NCBI GenBank assembly: GCA_963767005.1
Contig: CAVYCN010000003.1
Coordinates: forward strand, 96,001-160,000
DNA: 64,000 nucleotides
Reading direction: 5' to 3'
Source: an uncultured Actinomycetes bacterium
Lineage (GTDB): Bacteria; Actinomycetota; Thermoleophilia; UBA2241
Under the pieces are notes generated by a model. That model ran no database searches. It saw nothing but the letters and a program-made list of their open reading frames with translations, and was not told the DNA's origin. Of this stretch, positions 1 through 64,000 are shown piece by piece. Every line of letters begins with the position of its first letter. Position 1 is the first letter of the stretch. The position numbers were made by a program, and so were the translations under genes.

Positions 1-211
1 GGGCGATGGGCAGCTCCATCAGCGTGGCGAACAGACAGGCCATCCAGACTGAGCAGCCCGGGAAAGCCTCAGGCGCCCAGACGAACGTCCAGGGGAAGAT
101 CACCCCCATCGTAAGGAAGTTGTACGCGAACGCAGACCAAGGCGACATCACCCTGGACAGCCCCGAGGCCTTGCGGCTGAAGACTTCGGGCCTGGCGACA
201 CTGGACTCCAT
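1..211 (-). CDS. APC-family amino acid/amine permease, N-terminal part (runs off the left edge; missing from the ORF track)
   Basis: Manual translation from ATG at 211 gives MESSVARPEVFSRKASGLSRVMSPWSAFAYNFLTMGVIFPWTFVWAPEAFPG... The FxRxASGLxR N-terminus followed by hydrophobic helices is typical of APC permeases. GAGGGGG SD-like sequence upstream. Confidence 0.75.
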   Translation of the reverse strand, partial: MESSVARPEVFSRKASGLSRVMSPWSAFAYNFLTMGVIFPWTFVWAPEAFPGCSVWMACLFATLMELPIA

Positions 212-908: not shown

Positions 909-1907
909 CTAGCCTGACGTCATCTGATAGCCCACCACCTTGCCGGGCTCGAGCGTGATGATGCAGCCCCGGATGATGCCCTCGCCGTACTCGCTGCCGG
1001 GGTTGATGACGGTCGTGCGACCGAGGTTCACAAGGCCGCGCGACTCGTGGATGTGTCCCGTAAGGGCGAGCAGGGGCGCGTGCTTCTCGATGATCTTGCG
1101 CACCGCCGTGCTGCCGGCCGGCGCCGACTGCGGCACGCCGGCGATGACGATGGGCGAGGGCGGGTCGGTCGACCAGTCGAGCTTGGGGCAGTCGTCGAGC
1201 GTGCAGTCGTAGGGCGGCACGTGCATGTTGAAGATGGCGCTCGTGAAGTCGTCGATGCCGTCGACCGCCTGCTCGAGCAGCGTGTAGAGGGACTCCTCAT
1301 CGGTCTCGCGCGGCGTCGCCCAGGGCGTCGGGTTGCTGTGGCCGCAGTTGGCCATGGGGTAGAAGTCGTCGAACAGCACGACCCGGCCCTCGCAGTTGAC
1401 TACATGCTCGCTCTGCACCTCGTCGAAGACGGTGAGCACGTCGGGCGGGTCGTCGTTGCCGCCGGTCACGTACCACTTGATCGGCGTGTCGGCGAGGCGC
1501 TCGTCGGCCAGCGCGATCCAGCGCTCGATGCGCTCGCGCGCCAGGCGATGGAACGTGCCGTCGACCTGTGACTGGTCCGCCTGCATGGCGTGGAGCTCGT
1601 CCTCGGCCATCGTCACGTGGTAGAAGCCGAGCGTCTCGATGCGCTCCTTGATGGCGGCCAGGGCGTCGTCGCCCTCGATGTGCTCGGTCGTGCCCTGGAG
1701 CGTCACGCGGTAGTGGCTGTCGTGCTCATGGACGATGGGCACGAGGAACTTGCCCATGATGTCGCCGCCCATGATGATGTGGTCGACCTTGTAGAACTTG
1801 GCGCAGTTCACGAACTTGCGGAACGTGCGCTCCGAGCCGTGCACGTCGGTCGCATAGAACAGGCGCACGCGTTTGGCCCCGCCGTCCTTCTTCTTGAACA
1901 GTCCCAT
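909..1907 (-). CDS. Calcineurin-like (Icc-type) metallophosphoesterase
   Basis: Motifs TDVHG, GGDIMG, GGNDD, HVPP, GHIHES, INPGS. Start moved to ATG 1907 (MGLFKK). Confidence 0.85.
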   Translation of the reverse strand: MGLFKKKDGGAKRVRLFYATDVHGSERTFRKFVNCAKFYKVDHIIMGGDIMGKFLVPIVHEHDSHYRVTLQGTTEHIEGDDALAAIKERIETLGFYHVTMAEDELHAMQADQSQVDGTFHRLARERIERWIALADERLADTPIKWYVTGGNDDPPDVLTVFDEVQSEHVVNCEGRVVLFDDFYPMANCGHSNPTPWATPRETDEESLYTLLEQAVDGIDDFTSAIFNMHVPPYDCTLDDCPKLDWSTDPPSPIVIAGVPQSAPAGSTAVRKIIEKHAPLLALTGHIHESRGLVNLGRTTVINPGSEYGEGIIRGCIITLEPGKVVGYQMTSG

Positions 1908-1923: not shown

Positions 1924-2736
1924 TCAGTCGATCTCGTTGTACCACTTGACCTTGTCGCCGACCTTGGAGCGCAGGCGCCAGCGGGTGCCCTTGGGCTCAT
2001 CGTCCATCGCCTTGAGCAGCTCGCCGACGCGCTGCGCCACGACGGCGCGGTCTTCGTCGGACAGGTCGACGTGCGGCAGGTAGTCGCGTACCTTGCCGAG
2101 GTTCATCGAGCTCGTGCGCCACAGGCCCCACTCGCCGGCGCACAGGGTGGCGATCCGGGCCGCGTTTATGTGATCGGCGTCGTCGCGCGCGATCTCGTGC
2201 TCGCGCAGCAGCATGATGGTGTCGATGATGTCCTTCTCGTTGATCTTGACGATCTGCATCTTCTCCAGGACGAGCTCGGCCAGCGGGATGGTGGGGCTGT
2301 CGACGGCGAGCCGGTCCTTCCAGGGGATGGGGTGGCAGAAGTCGAGCCGGTCCATGAAGACGTCGACGTGGATGTGCTTGACCGGGTGGTTGAAGATCAG
2401 GCGCCCGGCCTCGGCGTGGAAGCTGTTGATCTCGACGTCCTCGTCGTAGCCGAGCGCGATGAAGAGGTCGCGGATCGGCTTTGACTGCTTGCCGTAGCCG
2501 GCGAAGTCGATGTCGGTGTACACGCGGTTGAGCTTGGCCTGGATCCAGCCGAACTGCGGGCAGTGATGGTGGAAGGCAAGGGCGCCGATCACGCGCAGCG
2601 CCACGCCGGCCTGCTGACCCGCCTGGACGACCCGCAGGGCCTCGTCCTCGAACACCCGCGCGAGGTCGGCGTCGGGCTGGCCGACGCCGACCTGCGCGCC
2701 GACCTCGCCGGCGGGGTGGGTGCCTTCGTCACTCAT
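1924..2736 (-). CDS. Uncharacterised nucleotidyltransferase-fold protein
   Basis: RVIGALA...YTDIDF (G[GSA]...DxD) plus HVDVF as third acidic residue and LEKMQI helix. Lies 16 bp from the phosphoesterase. Confidence 0.65.
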   Translation of the reverse strand: MSDEGTHPAGEVGAQVGVGQPDADLARVFEDEALRVVQAGQQAGVALRVIGALAFHHHCPQFGWIQAKLNRVYTDIDFAGYGKQSKPIRDLFIALGYDEDVEINSFHAEAGRLIFNHPVKHIHVDVFMDRLDFCHPIPWKDRLAVDSPTIPLAELVLEKMQIVKINEKDIIDTIMLLREHEIARDDADHINAARIATLCAGEWGLWRTSSMNLGKVRDYLPHVDLSDEDRAVVAQRVGELLKAMDDEPKGTRWRLRSKVGDKVKWYNEID

Positions 2737-3264
2737 AGCTTGCTCCCACATGTCTCGAGACGATGACCAGCTCGCTCGCGGTGCTCCAATCGTGAGCGTC
2801 CAGAACCAAGAACGATGCGAGCAGATGGCCGCCCAACGTCTGCTTGGAGGTAAACTGATCAGTGTCGTGCATGGTAACGGAAAGTTGAGCGAAGTTGACG
2901 ACAGTCTAGGCTCTCCTTGCTACTCGTCAAGCTCAGCCAGTTCTTCCATCGCGGGTTTGAGGTCACTGTCCGGGCTTGTGGGGCCGCGGGCTCGCAGTCT
3001 TGAGGTGGAGCGACGGCGGCATCGCCGCCGCTCCACCGTTCGGACAGCTGGCTTGCACTCTGGGGGCAGCACGCAAGTTGTCCGCACTCGCCAGCAACCG
3101 GGGGAGACAGAGGCTGCTGGCAAGCTTTGCCTTGTTGTTGGGAGGTTTGGTCGCGTCGGGAGGCTGACCAGGGGCACGCCAACCCAGCGATGTACCCCGA
3201 CGGCACCTCAGGAACCCCGCCGTCCGTGCATTGCTCGCAAGTGTGGCGCGTTCCAGGACACGGA

Positions 3265-4659
3265 TCAGACGAGACCCTGGTCGAGCATGCTGTCGGCGAC
3301 CTTGACGAAACCGGCGATGTTCGCGCCGTTCACGTAGTTGCCGGGCGTGTCGTACTCGTTGGCCGCGTCGACGCACTGCTTGTGGATGGCCTTCATGATC
3401 CCGTGGAGACGGGTGTCGACCTCTTCGCGCGTCCAGGCCAGGCGCAGGCTGTTCTGGCTCATCTCGAGACCGGAGGTGGCCACGCCGCCGGCGTTGGCGG
3501 CCTTGCCGGGGCCGTAGAGGATGCCGGCCTTGACGAACTGCTCGACGCCTTCGGGGACCGTCGGCATGTTGGCGCCTTCGGAGACCACGTACACGCCGTT
3601 CTTCAGCAGGTTGGCGGCGTCCTTGGCGTTGATCTCGTTCTGGACGGCGCTCGGGAAGGCCGCGTCGGCCTTGATGTCCCACAGCGGGTTGTGGTCGGCG
3701 TTCCTGTCGATCGGGTAGAACTTGGCGCCGAACTTGTCGGCGTACTCCTTGATGCGGCCGCGCTTGACGTTCTTGAGCTCGAGCAGGAAGGCGAGCTTCT
3801 CGCGATCGATGCCCTCGGCGTCATGAATGAAGCCGCTCGAGTCGGACAGCGTGACGGCCTTGCCGCCCAGGTCGAGGATCTTCTCGACGGTGTACTGGGC
3901 GACGTTGCCCGAACCGCTGACCAGGCAGGTCTTGCCCTCGAGGGTGTCGTCGCGCGTGTTCAGCATCTCCTCGGCGAAGTAGACCGCGCCGTAGCCGGTC
4001 GCCTCGGGACGGATCAGCGAGCCGCCCCAGTTGAGGCCCTTGCCCGTCAGCACGCCGACGAACTCGTTGCGGATGCGCTTGTACTGGCCGAACATGAAGC
4101 CGATCTCGCGACCGCCGACGCCGATGTCGCCGGCGGGGACATCGGTGAACTGGCCGATGTGCCGGCTGAGCTCGGTCATGAAGCTCTGGCAGAAGCGCAT
4201 GACCTCGCCGTCGCTCTTGCCCTTGGGGTCGAAGTTCGAGCCGCCCTTGCCGCCGCCCATGGGGAGCGTGGTGAGAGCGTTCTTGAAGACCTGCTCGAAG
4301 GCGAGGAACTTGAGCATGCCGAGGTAGACGGTCGGATGGAAGCGCAGGCCGCCCTTGTAGGGGCCGATGGCGCTGTTCATCTCGATGCGGAAGCCCTTCT
4401 GGATCTGGATCTCGCCCTTGTCGTCGACCCAGGGGACACGGAACATGATGACGCGCTCGGGCTCGATGATGCGCTCGAGGATCTTGGCTTCGCGGTACTT
4501 GGGATGGCGCGCGAGCACGGGCTCGAGCGACTCGGCGACTTCCTGGACGGCCTGGTGGAACTCGAGCTCGCCCTGGTTCTTGGCCACGACGTCGGCCATG
4601 AGCTTCTTCACGTACTCGGTCTTCGGTGCGGTAACCACGCTCACTTCAGAGCCCTCCAT
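3265..4659 (-). CDS. gdhA: NADP-specific glutamate dehydrogenase
   Basis: GPYKGGLRFHP, MGGGKGGSNFDPKGKS, DVPAGDIGVG, RPEATGYG, GSGNVA, GKAANAGGVATSGLEM. Confidence 0.97.
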   Translation of the reverse strand: MEGSEVSVVTAPKTEYVKKLMADVVAKNQGELEFHQAVQEVAESLEPVLARHPKYREAKILERIIEPERVIMFRVPWVDDKGEIQIQKGFRIEMNSAIGPYKGGLRFHPTVYLGMLKFLAFEQVFKNALTTLPMGGGKGGSNFDPKGKSDGEVMRFCQSFMTELSRHIGQFTDVPAGDIGVGGREIGFMFGQYKRIRNEFVGVLTGKGLNWGGSLIRPEATGYGAVYFAEEMLNTRDDTLEGKTCLVSGSGNVAQYTVEKILDLGGKAVTLSDSSGFIHDAEGIDREKLAFLLELKNVKRGRIKEYADKFGAKFYPIDRNADHNPLWDIKADAAFPSAVQNEINAKDAANLLKNGVYVVSEGANMPTVPEGVEQFVKAGILYGPGKAANAGGVATSGLEMSQNSLRLAWTREEVDTRLHGIMKAIHKQCVDAANEYDTPGNYVNGANIAGFVKVADSMLDQGLV

Positions 4660-4975: not shown

Positions 4976-6196
<1,221 letters not shown>

Positions 6197-6210: not shown

Positions 6211-7329
6211 TTACTCAAGGGACGCGGCTTTCAAATCATCCAGAGTGCCGCTTAACTCAAACAGCATGGACTCGCAGTCGTCGGCGGTGATGCATCCCAT
6301 AGTAGCTACTTGGAACATGTTCTGGCCTTCGAACACGCCCTTGCCTGGGTAGACAATGAATCCTCGTTCCTCAAACCTGTCGATGAACTCGTCGAGAGAC
6401 ACGCCTTGAGGGAGGAACGCCGACGTGACTGTGTTGCTTGAGAGCTCCTCTGGAAGAAGCAGGCGCAACCCAAGCGATGATAACCCGTCTCTCACAACTT
6501 TGCGGCATCCTTGATACCGTTTAATCCTCGTATCTAAGCCTTCGTCTAGCAAGTCTTCGACAGCCTGGTCAAGAGCGATAATCATTGTGACTGACGGTGT
6601 GTTTGGTGTCTGTTCGCATCGCTCTGCCCACATAATATGTGACTGCAAGTTAAGATATATATTGCGACGACGTATTCCGCTATCTGCATCAGGAATACTG
6701 CTACGCTTAGCTATCACGAATGACGTGCCGGTCATTCCACCGATAGCTTTATTGCCGACACCCGTCAATATATCTATCTGGTCCCTGATCACATCTATGT
6801 CTTCGCCGCCGACAGCACTGACACAATCTAGGAAAGTTCTGCATCCGTGGCGTTTCGCGATACTGGTTACGGAGGCAATCGGATTGCGCATCCCGGAACT
6901 AGTCTCGTGGTAGACCATGCAGACTAGATTTACTCGAGGATGTTTCTCAAGAGCGGCCTCGATATCGTCGACCGCAGGAGGTTCGCCCCAAGCATACTCA
7001 AGCCGGTAGACGCTCATGTCGTAGCATGTAAGGATGTCGTCGAGCCGCTGTCCAAAGGCACCGTTCTTTATCAGAAGAACTTCATCGGAGTCTCTGACAA
7101 TCGACGAAAGCGCGGTCTCATTGGCTGCAGTCCCGGAACCGCTGATGACCACGGCAGTGTAGTTCTCGTCGGCTCTGACGAGGCGAAGCAGGTTCTTTCG
7201 AAGCCGAGCGAGGATGGCTTCGAAATCCGACCGCCTATGTGCCATGTCTGGGTGGCACAGGGCTCGCTTCAAAGCACCCGTCGTCATGACGGGTCCGGGC
7301 GTAAAGAGTGTCTTCGCGTTCGTAATCAT
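6211..7329 (-). CDS. Class V PLP aminotransferase, 2-aminoethylphosphonate:pyruvate transaminase (PhnW)-like
   Basis: LFTPGP, SGSGTAANE, NGAFGQR, HETSSG, DCVSA, GNKAIGG (PLP lysine), FIVYPGK. Visibly lower GC than its flanks. Confidence 0.8.
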   Translation of the reverse strand: MITNAKTLFTPGPVMTTGALKRALCHPDMAHRRSDFEAILARLRKNLLRLVRADENYTAVVISGSGTAANETALSSIVRDSDEVLLIKNGAFGQRLDDILTCYDMSVYRLEYAWGEPPAVDDIEAALEKHPRVNLVCMVYHETSSGMRNPIASVTSIAKRHGCRTFLDCVSAVGGEDIDVIRDQIDILTGVGNKAIGGMTGTSFVIAKRSSIPDADSGIRRRNIYLNLQSHIMWAERCEQTPNTPSVTMIIALDQAVEDLLDEGLDTRIKRYQGCRKVVRDGLSSLGLRLLLPEELSSNTVTSAFLPQGVSLDEFIDRFEERGFIVYPGKGVFEGQNMFQVATMGCITADDCESMLFELSGTLDDLKAASLE

Positions 7330-7519
7330 AGTTCACCTAGCAAACCTTCAAGCCGGCGAGCTCTTCGCGCGCGCCGCCGCGTCGGGAATCGCACCGGCGT
7401 CCGCCCAACGATCAATGCCTTCGCGGCAACCCTTCTCATGCGAACCACCATGCCTTCGTAGCCGACCTCGAGCGCCGCCGACCTCGGGGATCGAAGACCC
7501 CTCTTGTCGGCTCGCCGGC

Positions 7520-7548
7520 ATTACAACACGCAGATTCGGTCATGTCAA
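7520..7548 (-). promoter_or_regulatory. Sigma70-type promoter for the aminotransferase
   Basis: Minus strand reads TTGACA-17 nt-TGTAAT. The palindrome GTTAT-gattg-ATAAC lies just upstream of the -35. Confidence 0.65.
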
Positions 7549-7689
7549 CTTTTGTTATGATTGATAACGCGCGAAGCGTCTGGTGAGTCAGCGGCGGCCG
7601 AGGCGGTGCTCGGGGGATGGTGCAGGGAGATCTGGCAGAAGCCGGATGCACGCTCGATGTCGCCGCGCTGAACGCGGGCACCGGCGCAG

Positions 7690-8130
7690 CAGCGCCAGCA
7701 TCAACGACCTCGGGGGCTACGAGCCTTCGTGGCGGCGCTGCGGCCGCTTGCGCGGGCGTGCGTGCTGCTCGCCCGCGAGCTCGGCGGCGCCGGCCTGGCC
7801 GTGGCCGACGTCAACTCGCACCGGTGCGCAACCTCGCCCACGCCGTGGCACGCTCGCCAAGACCGACCACCTCGATACACGCCTGCTCGCCGAGCTTGCC
7901 GTCCGTGCTTTGCGCCTGCGAGGACCTCGCCCGCTTCCTGCGCCCGTGAGTCGGGCGTCTGGCGCGAACGCCGGAGGGTCGGGCGGCCGTGACCAGGTGT
8001 GCCGCACGCTCTACATGGCCACCCTGCGGCGTCGCGCTACCATCCCACCATCCGCGCCTTCTACGAGCGGCTTGTTGGCGGCCAGCAAGCTCTGGAGTGT
8101 CCTGCGCCAGCGCTCGCCATGGCGTAACAC
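7690..8130 (+). pseudogene. Degraded IS110-family transposase
   Basis: Fragments in shifting frames: GGYE, LAVADVN, AKTDHLDTRLLAELA, GGRDQVCRTLYMATL, IRAFYERL. Frameshifts and a large internal deletion. Ends approximate. Confidence 0.8.
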
Positions 8131-8503
8131 ATACGAAGAGGGGCACGGTCAGGCCAGACTGACCCAAACTCATGAGTCGGCGTCTCAATGGGAGTCGTTA
8201 CGTCGCGCTGGGCTCTCAGGTCAGAGCTGATCGCTGGTCTTGTGGCCAGCCTAGTCGACGTGGGCGACCCTGGTCCCGGATGTTCGTAAGACGGTGGTTG
8301 AGCCGGCGCTGTAGCCGTCCCACCTCTCACGGTCGGTCCTCCTACGCACTCGCTCGTAGTAGCCAGCTCGAGGGCACGTCTACAGCCCATCAGGGGTGAC
8401 GACGTTCCTCTTCACAACGCCGTCACCCCCTCAAGGGCGTCCTTTTGGGCAAAGGCTCGCGCCATGGCAGAGACGCTAATCGGGCTCTGCACTCGGCGGT
8501 CAT

Positions 8504-9922
8504 TCAGGCCAACGCGTATCCCAACTCGCGCAGCTCTCGACGAGCGTCTTGGAGCGTAGCTTCGTAGTCGGGGTTGACCATGCGGCCCGTCGTTCGGTCG
8601 TACACCTCTCCGAAGATCCAGCCCGACTCTCCTTGCTCAAGCCGGTCGCTGTACTCCGAGTAAAGGCGGCTCACCACCTCGTTGGCCCGCTCGCGTGAGA
8701 ACGAGGCAGCTGCGATGCCGATCTCGGCCTGGAGCTGATGGTCGTCAGGAAGCAAGGAATCCATCTTAGCCGCTCTGGCGGGGTGGCCGGTGTATACCTG
8801 CGCCCCCGACGCCACGACCGAAGTCAAGTAGGCAGCGTCTTCGAGATGCGACATCCGGCTCCCGGCCTCGCCAGCAAGATAGGAGGTATTGAAGATAGAC
8901 ATGTTCATGTTGCGAGTCGCCGCCTGATTGGCCAGGGAGTTCGCCCAGATGATGGGGTGCGCCGTCGATACCAAGAGGCGCTGGTGAAGAGCCATGTTGA
9001 AGTGGTAGCGGGCCCTGAAAATCATCCAGCCGCCGATGATGTAGGCGGTGCACAAGATCGCAACGTTCTCGGCACCACCGGCGTACCCACCATACATTGG
9101 AGCCCCGACCGTGGCCACCGCTGCACCGAGACTGGCATAGAAAGCGGCGCGTTGCAGCGAAGCGTAGTTGACGACCATCTCGGATACGAAATCGATGAGA
9201 TAGCCGTCGGTAAGGCGCGCGCCGAACGCCGGATGACTGGCTGCGAACATAGAGCTGGACGCGATGGCGCTCGAGACGCAGTTGATAATGGGCATCCCCG
9301 GACGTCCTGCCCGGCGCAGACCCTCACGTGCTACGGACATGGCGCGAATTGCCGCCAGGATCTCCTGAGGCGAGCCGACCCTTGCCGGCACCCCATCGAC
9401 CGTCGGCAGCGAGGGTGCAGCTAGCGAGTCGGCAATCGGGATCGAGGCCATCTTCTCGACCATGCGGAGGCACGTAATCTCATCCGAGTGGTTCATGCCG
9501 CCGCCGACGTGAACCCACGGCCGCTGCTTGCTGTCCGGGCGACGAGGGATCATCGTCTTGCGGTCGACACCTTCCCCGAAGCCCACGGAGGGGAGCATGC
9601 TGGCGACGGCGCTCTCGATCTCGGCCTTGGTGAACTCCATGACCCGGTTCGTGTCGGAGCAGTAGAAGCCGACGAGCGAAATGAGCTCGACGGCGGCAGC
9701 GAACACCCGATCCGCCAGCTCGTCATCGCTGTTGACGAAGGCCTTGTGGTCCCACTCGATGCCGTTGTTCTTCACGGCCGATTTCAGCCCGGGAAGCAGG
9801 CGCGAAGAGATGAAGTCCTCCTGCCTAGTCAGGGGTCCTTCTTCGGCCCGTGCGAAGACCTCCGACAAGCTCATCCCATGCGTCACCGGCGACTTCTCTG
9901 GCAACGAGACGACGGACATCAC
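8504..9922 (-). CDS. Monomethylamine:corrinoid methyltransferase (MtmB) family protein without pyrrolysine
   Basis: Resembles MtmB over its whole length (RAEEGP, GFYCSDTNRVMEFT, AGRPGM, PMYGGYAGG, ARRELRELG). The archaeal GRPGMGV-Pyl site reads GRPGMPI-I and there is no internal TAG. Confidence 0.85.
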   Translation of the reverse strand: MMSVVSLPEKSPVTHGMSLSEVFARAEEGPLTRQEDFISSRLLPGLKSAVKNNGIEWDHKAFVNSDDELADRVFAAAVELISLVGFYCSDTNRVMEFTKAEIESAVASMLPSVGFGEGVDRKTMIPRRPDSKQRPWVHVGGGMNHSDEITCLRMVEKMASIPIADSLAAPSLPTVDGVPARVGSPQEILAAIRAMSVAREGLRRAGRPGMPIINCVSSAIASSSMFAASHPAFGARLTDGYLIDFVSEMVVNYASLQRAAFYASLGAAVATVGAPMYGGYAGGAENVAILCTAYIIGGWMIFRARYHFNMALHQRLLVSTAHPIIWANSLANQAATRNMNMSIFNTSYLAGEAGSRMSHLEDAAYLTSVVASGAQVYTGHPARAAKMDSLLPDDHQLQAEIGIAAASFSRERANEVVSRLYSEYSDRLEQGESGWIFGEVYDRTTGRMVNPDYEATLQDARRELRELGYALA

Positions 9923-10590
9923 CGACCTCCTGCCTGCGTCTTAGGTCGAAACAGTTGCTTGGCCATCTCCACGGCTTCATATGCCGTGGCGGAGAAGCCG
10001 TCAGCCCCGATGGCCTCTGCCCACTCCGCGGTCGTGGCTCCCCCACCTACGATCACTTTGTAGGCGCCGCGCTTGCCACTCCCTGCCAAGACATCGATGA
10101 CGTCCTTCTGACCGGACAGCGTCGTTGTCAGCAAGGCCGAGCATGCGATGATGTCGGCGTCGACCTCTTCGGCCTTCGAGACGAAGTCGAAGGGTGCCAC
10201 ATCGACGCCCAGATCATGAACGGAGAAGCCGGCAATACGGAGCAACAGCCCGAGGATGTTCTTGCCGATCGAGTGTATGTCGCCCCGAACCGTGCCGAGG
10301 ACGACGACACCCGCCTTGACCACCGACTGACCTGAGGCTTCAAGAGCCGGCTCAAGCAGCGACATAGCTCGCTCAAAGGCGACCGCAGATTGCATCATCT
10401 CCGGAAGGAACAGCTCATCCGCCAGGAAGAGTCGTCCCACTTCGTCCATCGCGGGCACCAGTGCGTCATCTATGATCTCCCTGGGACCGATGCCGGCTGC
10501 CAAGGACTCTCGCACGCACGTCTCAACGGCCTCCGCATCTCCAGCGATTACGGCCCTGCGCGTGCCGCTCTCTGGCTCCTTTGCGCTCAT
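9919..10590 (-). CDS. Methyltransferase cognate corrinoid protein (MtmC/MtbC/MttC-like)
   Basis: Cap domain (LVPAMDEVGRLF, FLPEM) and B12 motif GDIHSIGKNI, DLGVDV, SALLTTT, IVGGG. Its stop overlaps the mtmB-like start. Confidence 0.93.
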   Translation of the reverse strand: MSAKEPESGTRRAVIAGDAEAVETCVRESLAAGIGPREIIDDALVPAMDEVGRLFLADELFLPEMMQSAVAFERAMSLLEPALEASGQSVVKAGVVVLGTVRGDIHSIGKNILGLLLRIAGFSVHDLGVDVAPFDFVSKAEEVDADIIACSALLTTTLSGQKDVIDVLAGSGKRGAYKVIVGGGATTAEWAEAIGADGFSATAYEAVEMAKQLFRPKTQAGGR

Positions 10591-10888
10591 TCAGCTCATC
10601 ACCCTCTCTCACGCCACGCCAGCGGATTACCGGCGTACTCCGTCTCCGCGCATTGAAGCACATCAATATCACTCACGTCAATCAGTATTCTGCTCGATTC
10701 CGACTGATGCACAGGCCAAGTTCCGGCCGTGAAGTGGCCGGAAACGAGACTAGAACGATCGTCGATGACGATAGGGATGAGCACCGATTGCATGGGGTGC
10801 CGACGCTGCACCGACCGTCGCCACGCGTCAGACACCCTCAAGACGAGGGGGGACCGAAGAAAGGTGCCTTCAGAAGCCGTCCAGTGGG

Positions 10889-11686
10889 TTATTGTGCGGA
10901 TGCGACCTGGTCGTCGGTCGGAAACACAAAATCCACGCCTGCGCTCTTCAGCGCTTCTCGGAAGTCTGAGGGTAGCGATGTGGCCACAAGTTCGTCGACT
11001 TCCGACCAGTCAAGGATCCTGACCCGAGCATCTCGTCCTACCTTGCCCGACGATGCGAGGACCACCGTTCGGTCCGCATGTCGGGACATGGCTCGAGCCA
11101 CCGCCGCGTCCTCGACGCTGTTCGAGCGGACCCCTCCGTCCATAGTCACTCCGTCGACGCCTATCGCCGCGACGTCGGCATGCAGCACGCCAATCGCATC
11201 GACGGCAAGCGGCCCGTCTGTGCCGAAGGAAGTCCCTCTGAGGCTGCCGCCGATCACAATCACTTCGATCTTCGAGAAGGCCGACAGGAACTGAGCGATG
11301 TTAAGACCCGAGGTGATGACGGTCAAGCTGCGACGTGACAGCCATTGGGCCATCGCGTAGGTCGAGCTTCCGTCATTGAGGAAGATCGTGGCCCCCTCGG
11401 GAATTCGATCCACGGCCAGCTTGCCGACTAGGAGCTTCTCGCGACGATCCCGTCCTCGACGGATCTCGAACTCCTCGTCAAGACTGCTCTGCCTGGTGAT
11501 CACTCTTGCCCCCCCTCTGGTCCGGTGCAGGCTCCCTTGGCTCTCCAGGAGCACAAGATCCCGGCGAGCCGTCGCCTCACTGGAGTGGGTGAGCTGCATG
11601 ACCTCGGCAATGGACGCGAAGCTTTGATGGCTGAGGAGGTCGAGGATACTCTGTCTTCTCTCTTCGGCGACTACACGATCGCTCAC
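10889..11686 (-). CDS. DeoR/GlpR-family transcriptional regulator
   Basis: ERRQSIL, SEATARRDL, RTRGGA, IFLNDGSST. GTG start at 11686 is inferred. Confidence 0.9.
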   Translation of the reverse strand: MSDRVVAEERRQSILDLLSHQSFASIAEVMQLTHSSEATARRDLVLLESQGSLHRTRGGARVITRQSSLDEEFEIRRGRDRREKLLVGKLAVDRIPEGATIFLNDGSSTYAMAQWLSRRSLTVITSGLNIAQFLSAFSKIEVIVIGGSLRGTSFGTDGPLAVDAIGVLHADVAAIGVDGVTMDGGVRSNSVEDAAVARAMSRHADRTVVLASSGKVGRDARVRILDWSEVDELVATSLPSDFREALKSAGVDFVFPTDDQVASAQ

Positions 11687-12212: not shown

Positions 12213-13025
12213 TCAAACCTCGAAGTCCGCCACGATCGGCACATGGTCCGACATCGCGAACCGCTCGTCGCAGGCCAGCGCCTCACAGCGTACGAGCATC
12301 GCTGCCAGGGCCGCTGAGGCAAACAGGTAGTCAGTCTGGTAGGCGGTCTCCGGGTGTGCCCGGTCGGTGCGCGTGCGCACGTGAAGGCAGTGTTCGCCAT
12401 CGAGACACTGACAGCCCTTGAGCCGACCTGGAGGACGTTCGGCCAGCAGACAGTCGACGAGGCCGAGCGATTCGATGCGCTCAAGGACGCTGCGATCTCG
12501 TGCGTTCCAGCGCGCGTCCCGCGCCGGCCACTGCGTGCTGGTGTTGAGGTCGCCGCCGAGGAGCACGAGCTGGTTGTAGCGGGGGTCGTCGAGGACGGGA
12601 CTGAGCTCGGATAGCGAGCGGTGGACCGAGGCGTCGGAGAGCTCGTCCATCAGGCCGTAGAGCGAGATCGCGCTGACCGGTCCGATCGGAGTCTCCACAA
12701 GGGCCGCCACCCAGGAGCCCGGTCGCGAGCACTCGAATGGCACACCGCGCCTGCGTCCGCGAAACTCGGGCCGTGCGTCTGTGATGCAGGAGAGCGGCAG
12801 GTCGCTCATCACGGCCGCACTCCAGGCCCGCCGCCCCAGGTCTCGACCCTGCGTGCCGGCCCTGTTCCAGACTCCCATGCTGCCCGCCGGGACGATCGCT
12901 TCGTTTAGCAGGGCGATATCGGGCGCAAGAGACGCGAGGGGCTGCCAGGCCGACTGCCTCTGCGCCACGTTCCAGACCACGACCCGCAGAATCCCGTCGT
13001 GCGAACGGGCGGTCTGTGCCTCCAC
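12213..13025 (-). CDS. Endonuclease/exonuclease/phosphatase (EEP) family protein
   Basis: VVVWNV, DIALLNEA, LGGDLN, TDYLF, SDHVPI. GTG start 1 nt after the upstream TGA. Confidence 0.85.
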   Translation of the reverse strand: MEAQTARSHDGILRVVVWNVAQRQSAWQPLASLAPDIALLNEAIVPAGSMGVWNRAGTQGRDLGRRAWSAAVMSDLPLSCITDARPEFRGRRRGVPFECSRPGSWVAALVETPIGPVSAISLYGLMDELSDASVHRSLSELSPVLDDPRYNQLVLLGGDLNTSTQWPARDARWNARDRSVLERIESLGLVDCLLAERPPGRLKGCQCLDGEHCLHVRTRTDRAHPETAYQTDYLFASAALAAMLVRCEALACDERFAMSDHVPIVADFEV

Positions 13026-13026
13026 G

Positions 13027-14316
13027 TCAGCTCCCAGATCCGGTTGCCGCAAGAAGCGCGTCCCGAGACGCGTCTGTGTGCACCCACACAGTCTCGGTCG
13101 CGCCGATGGTCTCGACCAGCCGCTTGAGGTCCTCCGGCCAGGCGTGCCCGCCGCTGTGCGCGAAGCGCGGTTCCACGCCCTCACGCGTCGCCCAGTCGCG
13201 CAGTGCGCTGCTGCGCTCCCAGTAGCCACGCCACAGCGACCAGACCAGCACGGCGTGTTCGGATCCGACCTTGTCCAGAAGCTTGGTGAGCTTCGAGCTG
13301 CCGCGGGTGCACAGCAGGAAGCGCCCGGGCTGGGCGGCGAGCTCGTCACTGGTCACATGCCCCTCGTCGCGCATCTGGCAGACGAGGCGCATGAGGCCGG
13401 CCTGGCGCAGGCGCTCGACCTGGTGATGCAGGAAGGTGACCCGCACCGCGTCCCAGGAGAACTGCGGGATGTTGGCCGAGAGCGGCGCGAGCCTCATCAG
13501 CACGTAGGCCTGGTAGGCGTCGATCACGAGCTGACGACCGGAGCGCCGCGCGGCCTTGTAGCAGGAGACCAGACGATCGACGTTCTGGCCTGAGGCGGCC
13601 ACCGCGAGGAGCTTGTCGCCGTTGGCACGGGCCAGGCCGAGCAACTCCTCCTCGACGTCGAGTTCGCTAGGCAGCCCGTGGCTGCCGCCCGAGCTGCCCA
13701 GCGTCGTGCCCTCGCAGAGCAGCCAGTCGACGCCGCGGAGGCGCTCGTCTGCGAGCAGCCGCTCGAAGCGAAAGCCGGTGCGGCCGTGGGCCCGCAGGTC
13801 GCCGGTGTAGAGCAGCCGCTGACCGTCGCCCTCGACGAGCAAAGCACGCGAGTCGGGCGCGGCGTGGTCGACGGGGATGGCGGTCACGGTGAGACCGCCG
13901 AGCACGACCGGCTCGTCGGTCGGCAGTTCGAGCAGCGTGCCCGGCAGCCCGGCGTCGGGGAAGAAGACGCGGCCGACCTCGAGGATCGCGATTGTGCCCC
14001 GGCTGGCGAAGACGGGGATGGCCGGGTGGGCGTGGTGGGCGAGGCCGTAGTGATCGAGGTGGGCGTGGGTGAGCACGATCGCATCGACATCTGGCGCCGT
14101 CGGGTCGTGCGGATGGAGGCCGGGGACATCCGGCAGGACACCCTCAGCGATCAGCTCCTGCGCGGGCCGCTGCGCCGTGCCGCGGGGAAAGTCGCCGCCG
14201 TCGGGCGCCACGAGCGGCATGCCGAGGTCGAACAGGATGCGGGTGCCGTCATCGGCTGCGACCTCGATGCACATATGCCCGATCTCGTGCTGACCGCTGC
14301 GGATCTGGTAGTTCAC
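13027..14316 (-). CDS. MBL-fold beta-CASP (RNase J-like) nuclease
   Basis: EIGHMC, THAHLDHYG, VDHAAPDS, YTGDLRAHG, CEGT, HSGGHA, VWVHT. Confidence 0.88.
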   Translation of the reverse strand: MNYQIRSGQHEIGHMCIEVAADDGTRILFDLGMPLVAPDGGDFPRGTAQRPAQELIAEGVLPDVPGLHPHDPTAPDVDAIVLTHAHLDHYGLAHHAHPAIPVFASRGTIAILEVGRVFFPDAGLPGTLLELPTDEPVVLGGLTVTAIPVDHAAPDSRALLVEGDGQRLLYTGDLRAHGRTGFRFERLLADERLRGVDWLLCEGTTLGSSGGSHGLPSELDVEEELLGLARANGDKLLAVAASGQNVDRLVSCYKAARRSGRQLVIDAYQAYVLMRLAPLSANIPQFSWDAVRVTFLHHQVERLRQAGLMRLVCQMRDEGHVTSDELAAQPGRFLLCTRGSSKLTKLLDKVGSEHAVLVWSLWRGYWERSSALRDWATREGVEPRFAHSGGHAWPEDLKRLVETIGATETVWVHTDASRDALLAATGSGS

Positions 14317-15293
14317 TAGACGAGCACCCGCCGGTGCTCCTCGAACGCTGCCAGGTCGAGCACCTCGTCTCGGCGCAGCCGAAGCTCCGCATCCACATCG
14401 TCTGCTCGCGGCAGCTGGACGAAGCGCAGCAGTTCAAGACCCTCGGGGTGCTTCCCGGCGGCGGCCAGGAGCCGGGCCAGTGGCGTGCGCAACGAGGCAT
14501 CACGGGCGTCGAAACCAGCGAAGACTATGAAGTACAGCGGCGACTGCGGCGAGAACCCCTCGAAGGGCAGGTCCGCAGACAGCAGACCGAGGCGCTTCTT
14601 CTGCTCGACGACTCCCTCAAGCTCTCGCCTGATCTTCTCGACGTGCCGGCCTTCCTCGGCACCAAGCAGCGCCGCGAAGTCGGTGCCGTGGCCCTCGAGG
14701 CCGCACTTGCCATCGATGGCGCCCCGGTTGCACTTCAGCTCGGCGAGCACGAGGCGGGGTCGCGGCAGCTCGTGCATGTCGATCAGGACCAGGTCGAAGC
14801 GGATACGGGCATAGCCGTACTCGATGTCGACCACCACGAAATCGCCGGCTTCGGCCAGGGTGCGCGCGTCGTTGGCGCGGGCGATAGCCTGCTCGCAGCG
14901 CAGCTCTTCGTGGCGGTGGGCGTCCTTGTCGTGCGCCTGCATGTCTGCCTGACGTCTCGGCAAAGCCGCGACCAGTCGAGCCACGTCCTCGGCGCTTCTC
15001 AACGGCGATGACTCCGGCCCGCTGCCTGCGATGTAGCGCGAGTCGAAGACCTCCTCGAAGTGCTGGGGGTCACGGCCCTGCAGCCTGAGCAGGCTGCCGC
15101 CGCCGAAGTAGAGGTTGGCTTTGGCAGGCCTGATCTCGAGCCGCACCTCGTCGTGAGCGAGCACGTAGTCGAGAAGAGGCCGAAGATGTCCCCCGCTCAG
15201 CGCCTTCATCTGCGGCTCACTGAGCCTGCGGCGAGCCTTCCTGTATTTCGACCAGCCGAACTGGTCCTTGGGGCACGACTTGTTGGTCGCCAC
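14316..15293 (-). CDS. Putative PD-(D/E)xK nuclease-fold protein
   Basis: DIEY...RFDLVL...LAELK pattern. Its TAG overlaps the GTG of the MBL gene (TAGTG). Confidence 0.6.
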   Translation of the reverse strand: MATNKSCPKDQFGWSKYRKARRRLSEPQMKALSGGHLRPLLDYVLAHDEVRLEIRPAKANLYFGGGSLLRLQGRDPQHFEEVFDSRYIAGSGPESSPLRSAEDVARLVAALPRRQADMQAHDKDAHRHEELRCEQAIARANDARTLAEAGDFVVVDIEYGYARIRFDLVLIDMHELPRPRLVLAELKCNRGAIDGKCGLEGHGTDFAALLGAEEGRHVEKIRRELEGVVEQKKRLGLLSADLPFEGFSPQSPLYFIVFAGFDARDASLRTPLARLLAAAGKHPEGLELLRFVQLPRADDVDAELRLRRDEVLDLAAFEEHRRVLV

Positions 15294-61081: not shown

Positions 61082-62521
61082 ATGGAGCAGAGCATCATCA
61101 CGCGACTGGCCGACGGATCGCTCGTGCGCATGACGCCGAGCGAGATCCACGCCGACCTCGAAGAGGGCAGCGCCGCCGGCGCCAAGAAGGCCAAGGCACC
61201 CCCGCTCGAACCCGACGAGCTCGACCGCCTGCTCGAGATCTTCGCCTCGAACGCCCACTTCACGGCGGTCGACATCGGCGACGAGCTCATCCTGTCGTGC
61301 GACGGCTCGGGCAACATGGACTCCGGCACGCGCATCGACGAGCTCTACAGCTACCAGAGCCACCGCGGCGCCGACATCGTCGAGCTGTACCACATCGACT
61401 ACTCGTACAAGGCCGTCAAGACGGTCATGTCGTTCGAGCAGCAGGTGATGAAGAACGCCCAGCTCAACCTGGTGGCGCCGCTGCAGTACGGGGCGATGCC
61501 CGACCTGGGCCGCTACTCGCAGCCCGACGGGCCCATTCCCAACTGGTCGGAGCTGCTGCCCCTGGGGCGCATCGACGAAGCGCGCGCCGCCCAGGAGGAG
61601 GCAGTCGAGCACGCCGTACGCGACATGGTCTTCGTCGCCGAGGGCATGATCGAGGCCGGCGCCGACGGCATGGACTTCGACACCTCGGGCGCCGCCGGCG
61701 ACGCCGACTTCCTCGCCACGCTGCTCGCCGTCGAGGAGATCAGGCGGCGCCATCCCGATATCGGCATCGAGCTCGGCATGGCGAGCGAGTTCGTGCTCGG
61801 CATGCACGGCGAGCTCGAGTTCCACGGCAAGCGCCTCGCCGGCCTGTGGCCGCGCGACCAGGTCGCCGTGGCGGCCGAGGCGGGCGCGACCATGTTCGGG
61901 CCGGCGGTCAACGTCAACACGACACGCTCCGTGGCCTGGAACGTGGCGCGCGCCCTGGCGATCGTCAAGCCCTGCGTGCAGGAGTCGCCCATCCCGGTGC
62001 ACATGAACGCCGGCATGGGCGTGGGCGGCGTGCCGATGACCGCATACCCGCCGACCGACGCCGTGTCGCGCATGGCGCGCGCGATGCGCGAGGTCGGCCG
62101 CCTGGACGGCTTATAGGTGGGTGTGGGTGACCCGCTCGGCATGGCGTGCAGCCATGCGCTCGCCGCGGGCATGGGCGGAATGCGGACCGCCGGAGACCTG
62201 GTGGCCCGCATGCAGATGACCCGCGGCATGCGACTCGAGCAGGCCAAGACCTACGTCGCCGAACGGCTCGGCGTGAGCGTCCTCGACCTCTGCGACCCGC
62301 TCGTCATGCACGACGTGCGGCGCGAGCTCGGCCTGGGGCTGATCCCCGTGCAGGAGCTCACCTACCCGAGCGAGCCCGGCTCGATCGAGGCCAAGTTCCA
62401 CATCGCCGAGGTGCTCGACGTGCCCATCAACTGCGTGCGGCAGTTCAAGAATCGCGTCGCCCCGCGCTCGCGCGCGCGGCAGGTCGGCGCGACGGCGACC
62501 AGACCGGAGGTGCCCGCGTGA
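61082..62521 (+). CDS. mtbB: Dimethylamine:corrinoid methyltransferase with pyrrolysine (TAG 62114-62116, codon 345 of 479 aa)
   Basis: Two ORF-track pieces are joined in frame across one TAG: LDGL-*-VGVGDPLGM...RTAGDLVARMQM, matching the MtbB DGI-Pyl-IGVGDPLGM site. Also YGAMPDLG, FDTSGAAGDADF, GMGVGGVPM. Confidence 0.93.
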
Positions 62522-63987
62522 AACGTAACCTCTTCGCCGGCCGGCCGCGCAGCGGCGGCCTGCGCCTGAACGTCTTCACCGAGGCCGAGGTCGACGACAT
62601 CCACTCGGCGACGCTCGAGGTGCTCGAACGCACCGGCGTGTTCGTCGAGGCCGACGAGGCGCTCGACATCTTCTCGGACGGCGGCTGCGACGTGGACCGC
62701 GAGACGCACGTGGTGCGCATCCCGCCGCACGCCGTCGAGGACGCGATCCGCTCGGCGCCCGCGAAGATCGTGCTCTGCGGCCGCGAGCCGAAGAACGATG
62801 TCGTGCTCGAGCCGGGCCGCGTCGCCTTCACCAACTTCAGCGAGGGCATCCGCGTAGTCGATCCGTGGTCGGGCGAGATCCGCGACTCGACCAAGGCCGA
62901 CATCGGCGACATCGCCCGCCTGAACGACTACCTGTCCGACATCGACACGCACGAGATCGCGGTCGGCGCCAGAGACGTGCCGCCCGAGACCTGCGCGGTG
63001 CACAACGCCGAGATGCAGTACCTGAACACGACCAAGCCGATCGGCATCGGACCGCTGTCGCGCACCGAGACGATCGCCATCTTCCGCATGGGCGCCGAGA
63101 TCGTCGGCGGCGCCGATGAGCTGCGCCGGCGCCCGATCGTCTACAACGGCGTCTGCCCGGTGAGTCCGCTCAAGCTGCCGCACGAGGCCACCGAGGTGAT
63201 CATCGAGACGGCCCGCTGGGGTATTCCCAACAACATCCTCTCGATGGCGATGGCCGGCGGCTCGTCGCCGGTCACCCTGGCCGGCACCCTGGTCACCCAC
63301 AACGCCGAGGTGCTGTCGGGCATCACGCTGGCGCAGCTCTCTGAGCGGGGCGCGCCCTGCATCTACGGCAGCTCGACGACGGCGATGGACCTCAAGCTGG
63401 CGGCGGCCTGCGTGGGCTCGCCCGAGCTCGCCATGATCTCGGCCGCCGTGGCCCAGATGGCCAGGCGCTACCTGCTGCCGAGCTTCGTGGCCGGCTTGTA
63501 GGCTGACTCGAAGCTCGGTGACGCCCAGGTCGGGCACGAGAAAACCCTCACCGGCATCATGGCAGCGTTGGCAGGGGCCAACCTGATCTACGGTTCGGGG
63601 ATGATCGAGTCGGGCGTCACCTTCGATTGCGGGCAGTTCGTCATGGACAACGAGTTCGCCCGCATGATCAAGCACTGCGTCGGCGGCATCACGGTGAGCG
63701 ACGACACGCTCGCCGTCGACGACATCGCGGCGGTGGGGTCGTTCGGCGACTTCCTGTCGCTCGACGCCACCCTGCGCCACATGCGCGAGCTCTCCCAGCC
63801 GGAGCTCCTCGACCGCCGCGTGCGCGAGGACTGGGAGGAGCGCGGCGCTACCGACCTGCACGCCCGTTGCCTGGCCAAGGCGCGCGAAATCCTCACAAAC
63901 TTCACGCCGGCGCAGCTCGACGACGACGTCAAGGGGCGCATTCGCGATATCGTGGTCGAGACCGATCGTCTGGTCGGTGTCGCCTGA
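62518..63987 (+). CDS. mttB: Trimethylamine:corrinoid methyltransferase with pyrrolysine (TAG 63499-63501, codon 328 of 489 aa)
   Basis: GTG start overlaps the mtbB TGA, with a GGAGG SD. PSFVAGL-*-ADSKLGDAQVGHEKT matches the MttB VAG.-Pyl-.D.K..D.Q.GHEK site. SPVTLAGTLVTHNAEVLSG, YGSST, GSPE. The frame stays open to TGA 63987. Confidence 0.94.
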
Positions 63988-64000
63988 AAGGAGAGGCCCA

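Follow-up and report, generated by a model that had tools for sequence, protein, structure and literature searches.

The window analysed here is a stretch of 64,000 nucleotides from an uncultured Actinomycetes bacterium of the Thermoleophilia (assembly GCA_963767005.1, contig CAVYCN010000003.1, positions 96,001 to 160,000). Its minus strand carries a gene for a methyltransferase of the MtmB family that lacks pyrrolysine (Pyl), named P0001, together with genes for a corrinoid protein and a DeoR-family regulator; a pyridoxal phosphate (PLP) enzyme, P0002, is encoded farther downstream. An earlier note on this DNA had read the four genes as a candidate pathway in which an N-methylated precursor of a primary amine is demethylated and then transaminated. 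The layout that it described was borne out. The regulator gene precedes the corrinoid/MtmB unit on the same strand, the corrinoid protein has both B12 domains, and the stop of its gene overlaps the start of the MtmB-like open reading frame (ORF) at 9919-9922. P0001 may start at 9922 or 9919, downstream of a GGAGG site, or at the ATG at 9874, where its homologs start. The PLP gene is co-oriented with this unit, and a relic of an insertion sequence (IS) of the IS110 family lies between them.

The ORF of P0001 has no in-frame stop. It covers positions 3-449 of the 450 in profile PF05369 (205.9 bits, E 1.3e-60), and its AlphaFold model matches the MtmB structure 1L2Q with a template modelling (TM) score of 0.87. 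The gene is thus a full-length member of the family with isoleucine at the Pyl position, as had been claimed: the Pyl column of 1L2Q corresponds to Ile213, and an in-frame TAG or pyrrolysine is absent. Among 63 clade members this column holds Ile in 61 and Leu in two. Glu229 and Glu259 of MtmB, which presumably have a catalytic role next to Pyl, are represented by Leu242 and Val272, and the equivalent of Tyr335 is kept (Y348). The putative pocket residues N214, D244, F245, E248, Y306, H307, N309, Y348 and H380 are common to P0001 and its sister clade.

In a tree of 211 sequences, P0001 groups with P0006 and with its closest relative P0007 from locus L104 (60% identity) with support of 1.0. This group is sister to a 62-sequence clade (support 0.947; 43-50% identity to P0001) that includes a paralog on contig C2 (314109-315491) of the host genome. 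The clade spans Thermoleophilia, Desulfobacterota-like and other sediment bacteria. P0001 sits on a long branch (0.36), and its codon positions differ from those of the L104 gene by 31/22/58%, as in a constrained gene. It lies far from the Pyl MtmB clade, being 24% identical to the Pyl MtmB of its own host. P0001 is of the known non-Pyl MtxB/corrinoid kind and is not MtmB proper. The distance from the Pyl clade argues against its membership in the clade of MtqB, which branches near the Pyl MtmBs (PMC13044021, available text), so P0001 is probably not an MtqB. The earlier note knew of no assigned substrate for non-Pyl MtmB homologs; this has been overtaken by MtqB of Methanococcoides methylutens Q3c, such a homolog, which according to the same text demethylates tetramethylammonium and, in vitro, choline.

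Four members of the MtmB family are encoded in the host genome (3.4 Mb; completeness rated at 100%). Besides P0001 these are the non-Pyl paralog on C2 (48% identity), a gene on C19 (31%) and, on C3, one that contains TAG. The host's PylS scores above the family cut-off and its mtmB, mtbB and mttB are TAG-interrupted; Pyl and non-Pyl systems do coexist in one genome, as anticipated. In the window, mtbB (61082-62116) and mttB (62518-63999) are of the Pyl type, each stopping at TAG and continuing in frame. At C3:78297-82497 a TAG-containing mtmB and a corrinoid gene stand beside carbamoyltransferase-like and amidinotransferase-like genes (labels by eye). Expression of bacterial Pyl mttB/mtbB in peat Actinobacteriota is described in the available part of a preprint (bioRxiv 2023.07.09.548291).

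Gene neighbourhoods were compared in 39 metagenome loci of MtmB-like genes (16 of at least 10 kb, several redundant) and in 18 sister-clade loci from relatives of the same family; two further loci of other MtmB clades were excluded from the co-location count. A corrinoid gene lies beside the MtmB-like gene in 33 of the 39 and in all 18. The sister clade, present in 19 of 36 family genomes (matches at E < 1e-130), has a fixed gene order: DeoR, kinase, non-Pyl MttB, corrinoid, MtmB-like. Its 18 loci contain corrinoid (18), MttB (17), a kinase resembling MthK (16), DeoR (16), choline-kinase family (11), APC (10), phosphoesterase (10) and 'NTase-like' (8) genes. The native operon of the host, C2:309747-315491, has this order, with an MthK-like kinase, a non-Pyl MttB that is putatively MthB-like and a non-Pyl MtmB, and is kept across the family. 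Directly behind it (C2:316174-321226) follow an 875-residue GcvT gene, SHMT-like by eye in its C-terminal part, and a divergent transketolase-like gene; the same GcvT/SHMT-like and transketolase-like pair directly follows the sister operon in four of the 18 loci (L144, L146, L154, L156).

The assignment of the kinases relies on four short MthK motifs, taken from the alignment in Fig S5 of PMC12155760. All four are found in the C2 kinase, two in that of L104 and one in that of L124, and none of 11 other kinases has any; the kinases of L104 and L156 share 41% identity. Judged by these motifs, an MthK-type kinase lies within three genes of the methyltransferase in 16 of the 18 sister operons and in L104; the window locus has none, and the C2 kinase would act in trans. 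When homologs of the L104 kinase were sought, 28 proteins came up; in the eight clusters looked up, no name pointed to Eubacterium limosum. L104 is also the source of the best matches to the window's DeoR (57%) and corrinoid (67%) proteins. It reads DeoR, a GlpA-like and a second oxidoreductase, kinase, an EamA transporter, a small ORF, corrinoid and MtmB-like, and has no MttB. Compared with it, the window unit looks like an L104-type cluster that has lost its middle. The C2 operon, L104 and locus L151 are better test objects than the window locus.

Other recurrent neighbours in the 39 metagenome loci are DMGDH/GcvT-like (11), PhnS2-like (9), MeTr (9), AlaDH (8), transaldolase-like (7) and HisC-like (7) genes. 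In L106-L113 and L129 a PhnS2-like ABC binding protein and a fused permease stand beside sister-clade MtmB, MeTr and DMGDH-like genes. One Anaerolineales genome (contigs C74 and C96 of G064; L163-L169, L188) holds six non-Pyl MtmB-family genes in tandem pairs. A query of the genome contig collection with P0001 gave 36 pattern matches, none confirmed as loci.

P0002 is a class V PLP enzyme (PF00266) of fold type I that keeps the PLP lysine, Lys194, and Asp168. Its label as PhnW-like held for the fold, with TM scores of 0.91-0.93 against PhnW-type structures, but not for the family. Three curated hidden Markov models of PhnW/AepZ give 305.1, 235.9 and 234.3 bits against cut-offs of 360.8, 296 and 400.8, all below, and two arginines are replaced. 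Across 156 family sequences Lys194 and Asp168 are invariant, the column of Arg240 in 1M32 is proline in all 156 (Pro242 in P0002), that of Arg339 is glutamine in 152 (Gln340), and a His31-Arg32 pair is kept in 154. We take the last PhnW arginine (Arg339 of 1M32) to bind the acid group of the substrate; His31-Arg32 recalls the His-Arg pair that presumably forms the phosphate site for phosphoserine in SerC. Together these features mark a separate subfamily, whose predicted substrate is plausibly a phosphate ester without a carboxylate. P0002 is not PhnW; it may be a transaminase, a phospho-lyase or a decarboxylase, chemistries that are indistinguishable here. Literature searches on the active-site residues returned nothing.

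The neighbours of this family were counted in 37 closer loci out of 68 aminotransferase loci: transaldolase-like (9), NTase-like (8), DMGDH-like (7), choline-kinase family (7), GlpK-like (6), GpdQ-like (6), MttB (5), APC (5), phosphoesterase (5) and HisC-like (5) genes. Three of the five MttB proteins are 55-58% identical to the C2 MttB. Three Anaerolineales clusters extended past MttB gained HisC-like and GntR genes and showed no corrinoid or MtmB gene. In six loci the PLP enzyme is fused to a nucleoside triphosphate (NTP) transferase, several of them beside a CDP-alcohol transferase-like gene (labels by eye). In L061:2306-5685 and L066:9242-12543 (also L062-L065) the Gln340 class V domain is fused behind an NTP-transferase and accompanied by a second NTP-transferase and a CDP-alcohol transferase-like gene, in surface-polysaccharide loci. 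The layout is PntC-AEPT-like without visible phosphonate genes and perhaps serves CDP-serinol or CDP-ethanolamine synthesis.

The aminotransferase as a conserved partner of the methyltransferase, central to the earlier proposal, found no support. None of the 68 aminotransferase loci matched MtmB or corrinoid queries, and none of the 57 MtmB loci (39 metagenome and 18 sister-clade) holds the aminotransferase, so that within the sampled loci the two never co-occur. MtmB-family genes are present in two of five genomes from which aminotransferase loci came, all on other contigs (31-39% identity to P0001 and the sister clade). Both families have in common DeoR, APC, phosphoesterase, NTase-like, choline-kinase family, DMGDH-like, transaldolase-like, HisC-like and MttB neighbours. 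The link between them seems to survive only at second order, as the same kind of gene neighbourhood.

One of these shared neighbours encodes a transaldolase-like protein of 400 residues, for which the ESM Atlas returned only 'transaldolase family'. It occurs in 14 of the 19 family genomes with the sister MtmB vs. one of the 17 without it (Fisher p 4e-5, overstated because the genomes are kin). A HisC-like gene follows it in 17 of 17 family loci, often with a transketolase gene behind; examples are C2:164058-168553 of the host, which has the transketolase, and L190-L205. In Chloroflexota the transaldolase-like gene directly precedes a class V gene, in the place of the HisC-like one, and some clusters have both. 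Locus L151 (3339-14908) joins in one run DeoR, MthK-like, MttB, corrinoid, MtmB-like, choline-kinase family, transaldolase-like, HisC-like and transketolase genes.

The remaining features of the window island are collected in the table below.

Features of the window island and its surroundings (window coordinates)
Feature	Position	Strand	Remarks
DeoR-family regulator	10889..11686	-	closest sampled match: DeoR of locus L104, 57%
Corrinoid (B12-binding) protein	9919..10590	-	both B12 domains; closest sampled match L104, 67%
MtmB-family methyltransferase P0001, full-length, non-Pyl	8504..9922	-	PF05369 match, fold
Ile codon ATC at the pyrrolysine position of P0001 (Ile213)	9284..9286	-	alignment to 1L2Q
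IS110-family transposase relic, degenerate, internally deleted	7600..8125	+	blastn matches; ends approximate
Promoter-like element, ~190 nt upstream of the PLP gene	7520..7548	-	read from sequence; putative
Class V PLP enzyme P0002, subfamily related to PhnW/AepZ	6211..7329	-	co-oriented with the MtmB unit
gapA-like gene	4976..5998	-	name by ORF reading; 99.8% identical copy on contig C2
gdhA-like gene	3265..4659	-	name by ORF reading; 99.9% identical copy on contig C6
'NTase-like' protein	1924..2751	-	label by eye, no Pfam match; 99.6% copy on C2
Metallophosphoesterase-like gene	909..1907	-	weak Pfam matches; 99.6% copy on C2
APC-family permease gene, 5' end	1..148	-	continues beyond the window edge

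The IS110 relic gave blastn matches in four plasmid records (best E 5e-7), of which two fall on annotated IS110 transposases, and weak colinear pieces lie at 7847-8125. Its frames had no hits in Pfam scans, and it shows no similarity above control to the IS110 of the host genome itself. A DNA search with the intergenic stretch in 60 relatives returned only short, GC-rich, chance-like matches. A promoter of its own had been ascribed to the PLP gene, and a putative one is indeed readable at 7548-7520 (-), with a perfect -35, a 17-nt spacer and a 5-of-6 -10; a consensus scan missed it because position 2 of the -10 is not the A that the scan requires. The PLP gene is probably transcribed separately. 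The lower-GC codon style said to be shared by the four genes stood in part. Their GC contents at third codon positions (GC3: MtmB-like 0.79, corrinoid 0.72, DeoR 0.71, PLP gene 0.58) are all below the host value of ~0.95, but the PLP gene differs from the MtmB-like gene (p 3e-10) and from the corrinoid and DeoR genes. It matches instead a GlpK-like kinase gene (0.60; p 0.68) located at C3:92616-94100, next after the APC gene and ~8 kb beyond the PLP gene. This split makes the island look like two acquisitions rather than one.

Downstream of the PLP gene the island repeats the NTase-like, phosphoesterase, APC and GlpK-like neighbours seen elsewhere; NTase-like and metallophosphoesterase-like genes recur beside both the MtmB-like and the PLP family. 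Three gene-bounded copies (911-2736, 3261-4657 and 5007-5998), 99.6-99.9% identical to C2/C6 genes, lie within this low-GC3 island, whose APC gene shares only 73% with the counterpart on C2. The copies may stem from gene conversion or a recent duplication, or be an artefact of polishing. Short pieces of the PLP, MtmB and DeoR genes occur as exact matches in public contigs of one study. Among the pieces listed none bridges the IS relic, so the junction is without independent confirmation, and no RNA run was among the sequencing runs listed for these genes. Upstream of DeoR (12213-15293) lie accessory-looking endonuclease/phosphatase-like, metallo-beta-lactamase-fold and unnamed ORFs. Just past the end of the island (C3:86938-90168) there are DNA-methylase-like and terminase-like ORFs (by eye) and, nearby, 349 nt that match the flank of the C2 IS110 at 91%.

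In our judgement there is an even chance that P0001/P0003, the MtmB/corrinoid pair, N-demethylates phosphocholine or N-methylethanolamine phosphates in a B12-dependent manner and that P0002, separately acquired, acts on the resulting amino-alcohol phosphate. Given that its relatives lie in choline-kinase-like operons, P0001 is likely to demethylate head groups of the choline type. Choline/ethanolamine head groups are the point where two choline-kinase types, two corrinoid methyltransferases, a DMGDH-like flavoprotein and two PLP families meet; for both PLP families, the nearest characterised relatives handle aminoethyl-phosphorus compounds. In its broad form the idea of the earlier note, N-demethylation of an aminoethyl-type compound by a non-Pyl MtmB/corrinoid pair, is probably right; the phosphorylated ligand that it derived from the DeoR regulator is also predicted here.

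MtxB enzymes transfer a methyl group to Co(I) of a corrinoid protein, and an MeTr-type enzyme passes it to tetrahydrofolate (THF). In the proposed scheme the MthK-like kinase, encoded on C2 in the host and beside the MtmB gene in L104, would phosphorylate choline. The non-Pyl MttB would remove the first methyl group, as MthB does, and the MtmB-like protein would take a further one, or the first where no MttB adjoins. From P0001 the methyl group would pass to the Co(I) corrinoid and on to THF via an MeTr-type enzyme, of which a homolog is encoded at C3:328995. The PLP enzyme would convert phosphoethanolamine (or serinol/aminopropanediol phosphate) to a carbonyl phosphate. The window locus itself would have arisen by horizontal acquisition, as a reduced paralog of the native C2 operon that is joined across the IS110 relic to an aminotransferase/GlpK-like module of other codon style.

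Several points weigh against this reading. Every chemical step is a prediction. No kinase, MttB or transporter gene lies next to the window MtmB gene, the kinase link of its own subclade comes from the single locus L104, and an MthK-like kinase occurs in only two of the 39 metagenome loci (many contigs being short or redundant). The 18 sister-clade loci are kin and not independent. Of 235 positions that the sister clade conserves, P0001 keeps only 157, which leaves room for a shift in substrate; its pocket is unreadable because the model is of low confidence at 215-235 and 240-281. In 399 Clostridia genomes searched for kinase-MttB pairs none matched the kinase, a search with no positive control (two more genomes were unscored). 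A PhnS2-like binding protein (258 bits vs. a cut-off of 393) accompanies the MtmB gene in nine of the 39 loci, and such neighbours fit phosphonates as well as phosphoesters.

It is conceivable, though rather doubtful as a whole, that the wider gene set makes up an anaerobic pathway, so far undescribed, in which choline is used completely, with no trimethylamine and no B12 ammonia-lyase. The MthK-like kinase and MttB would yield dimethylethanolamine phosphate, which the non-Pyl MtmB clade, in some lineages with the DMGDH-like flavoprotein, would convert to phosphoethanolamine. A HisC-like or arginine-less class V enzyme would transaminate this to glycolaldehyde phosphate, and the transaldolase-like protein would join the latter with a dihydroxyacetone unit to xylulose 5-phosphate. 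The co-occurrence of the transaldolase-like gene with the sister MtmB, its constant HisC-like follower, the gene order in Chloroflexota and the L151 run all support this. Literature searches on a phosphoethanolamine/glycolaldehyde-phosphate/transaldolase route and on the later demethylation of methylethanolamines, with most subscription papers outside their scope, turned up no description of the proposed pathway.

Other explanations must be weighed against the phosphocholine reading. The original proposal, in which N-methyl-2-aminoethylphosphonate or N-methyltaurine is demethylated by MtmB/corrinoid and then transaminated by a PhnW-type enzyme, all in one operon, now appears improbable. By structure and by profile, P0002 matches 2-aminoethylphosphonate (AEP) transaminases best, the PhnS2-like binding proteins would suit it, and N-methyl-AEPs are natural compounds that PhnW cannot use and FAD enzymes oxidise (PMC10590968, available text). 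Yet P0002 stays below the PhnW/AepZ cut-offs, both PhnW arginines are replaced family-wide, and co-location was zero in 68 and 57 loci. In the host genome, rated complete, PhnX reached at best 43.8 bits vs. a cut-off of 220 and PhnA 26.4 vs. 407.6; the control genomes gave no positive, leaving the sensitivity unproven, and PhnY was not searched for. The neighbouring haloacid dehalogenase-type proteins did not match the phosphonatase model, and no taurine or sulfonate genes were among the recurrent neighbours scanned, no search having been aimed at those families. The neighbourhoods contain kinases instead of genes for C-P or C-S cleavage, and kinases hardly make sense if the substrate already carries phosphorus.

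Glycerol-type genes point in another direction. The substrate could be an N-methylated C3-C5 amino-polyol (N-methylserinol, methylamino-propanediol or methylated aminopentanetetrol lipid head groups), compounds that presumably have a natural supply; we regard this as unlikely. The GlpK-like kinase would phosphorylate it, the MtmB-like protein would demethylate it, and the PLP enzyme would give dihydroxyacetone phosphate (DHAP), glyceraldehyde 3-phosphate or a pentulose phosphate, which would feed GapA or transaldolase/transketolase. GlpK-like genes accompany the PLP family in six of 37 loci and share its codon style in the window island, a gapA-like gene lies directly downstream of the PLP gene, L104 has a GlpA-like gene, and transamination between serinol phosphate and DHAP by a PLP enzyme is known (PMC12409886, available text). 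Glycerophosphocholine and glycerophosphoethanolamine explain the glycerol genes equally, however (GpdQ-like in six of 37 loci), the conserved kinase is MthK-like, and gapA is a near-identical copy of a resident gene. There is also a minor but real chance that the locus is an accidental mosaic, in which the PLP gene has no connection with MtmB/corrinoid/DeoR. That unit would then act, like MtqB, on a quaternary amine that is unrelated or carries no phosphate, or would be a spare paralog undergoing drift. The IS relic and promoter-like element between the units, their different GC3, the long branch of P0001, the lack of a close match to the PLP gene among 60 relatives (best 28-30%) and the absence of adjacency elsewhere all suit a mosaic. 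The neighbour set that both families share and the window island repeats, and the intact state of all frames, speak against it.

If the phosphocholine reading and its extension to all of choline are true, soil and sediment bacteria could turn choline head groups into methyl-THF and pentose phosphates and release no trimethylamine, which bears on the substrate supply of methanogens. Two orphan families, the Gln340 class V PLP enzymes and the 400-residue transaldolase-like proteins, would gain first functions. In the papers found, a substrate is assigned to just one non-Pyl MtmB, and the one described anaerobic bacterial choline pathway stops after one methyl group. For the later steps that are missing, the clade provides a set of named enzymes and a short list of substrates.

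Among known systems, PhnW/AepZ (1M32, 9KK8, 6PD1; TIGR02326, TIGR03301) share with P0002 the class V fold, the PLP Lys and Asp, a YPGK-type motif and ~30% identity, and NTP-transferase fusions occur in both families. P0002 differs in its sub-threshold scores, in Pro/Gln for Arg240/Arg339, in the N-terminal His-Arg pair, which is invariant, and in that no PhnX/PhnA was found. The established PhnWX and PhnWAY routes are described in PMC10574752 (available text). In Campylobacter jejuni the PLP enzymes Cj1437 and Cj1436 form serinol phosphate and decarboxylate phosphoserine, respectively (PMC12409886). They set an example for PLP chemistry with serinol phosphate and ethanolamine phosphate; unlike the P0002 system, they are biosynthetic. 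Their fold class is, we assume, HisC/CobD-like and not class V.

MtmB/MtmC of Methanosarcina barkeri (1L2Q, 1NTH) resembles the P0001 system in fold, full-length alignment and the retained tyrosine; P0001 differs in Ile for Pyl202, in Leu/Val for the two glutamates and in an identity of only 22-25%. With MtqB/MtqC, P0001 shares the MtmB family, the lack of Pyl, an adjacent corrinoid gene and a likely choline-type substrate. The MtqB paper (PMC13044021), in its available text, names this the first such function and counts the function of other non-Pyl MtmBs as unknown; another, induced by dichloromethane, is likewise without assigned function in the available part of PMC9768040. In contrast to MtqB, P0001 belongs to a distant bacterial clade tied to kinases, and the methyl acceptor is presumably THF instead of coenzyme M. 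The closest parallel in gene content is the mth cluster of E. limosum, which comprises kinase, EamA transporter, corrinoid and MttB genes; there MthK is a choline kinase, MthB a phosphocholine methyltransferase of the MttB family and MthC a further component, and the pathway ends at dimethylaminoethanol (PMC12155760, available text). The sister operon resembles MthK/MthB/MthC/MthA in its MthK-like kinase, non-Pyl MttB and corrinoid genes, and L104 in its kinase and EamA. Unlike mth, which has no MtmB-family gene, the clusters described here add an MtmB-like protein or, as in L104, have it in the place of MthB; P0001 itself is of the MtmB and not the MttB family, and PLP and transaldolase-like genes belong to the wider gene set.

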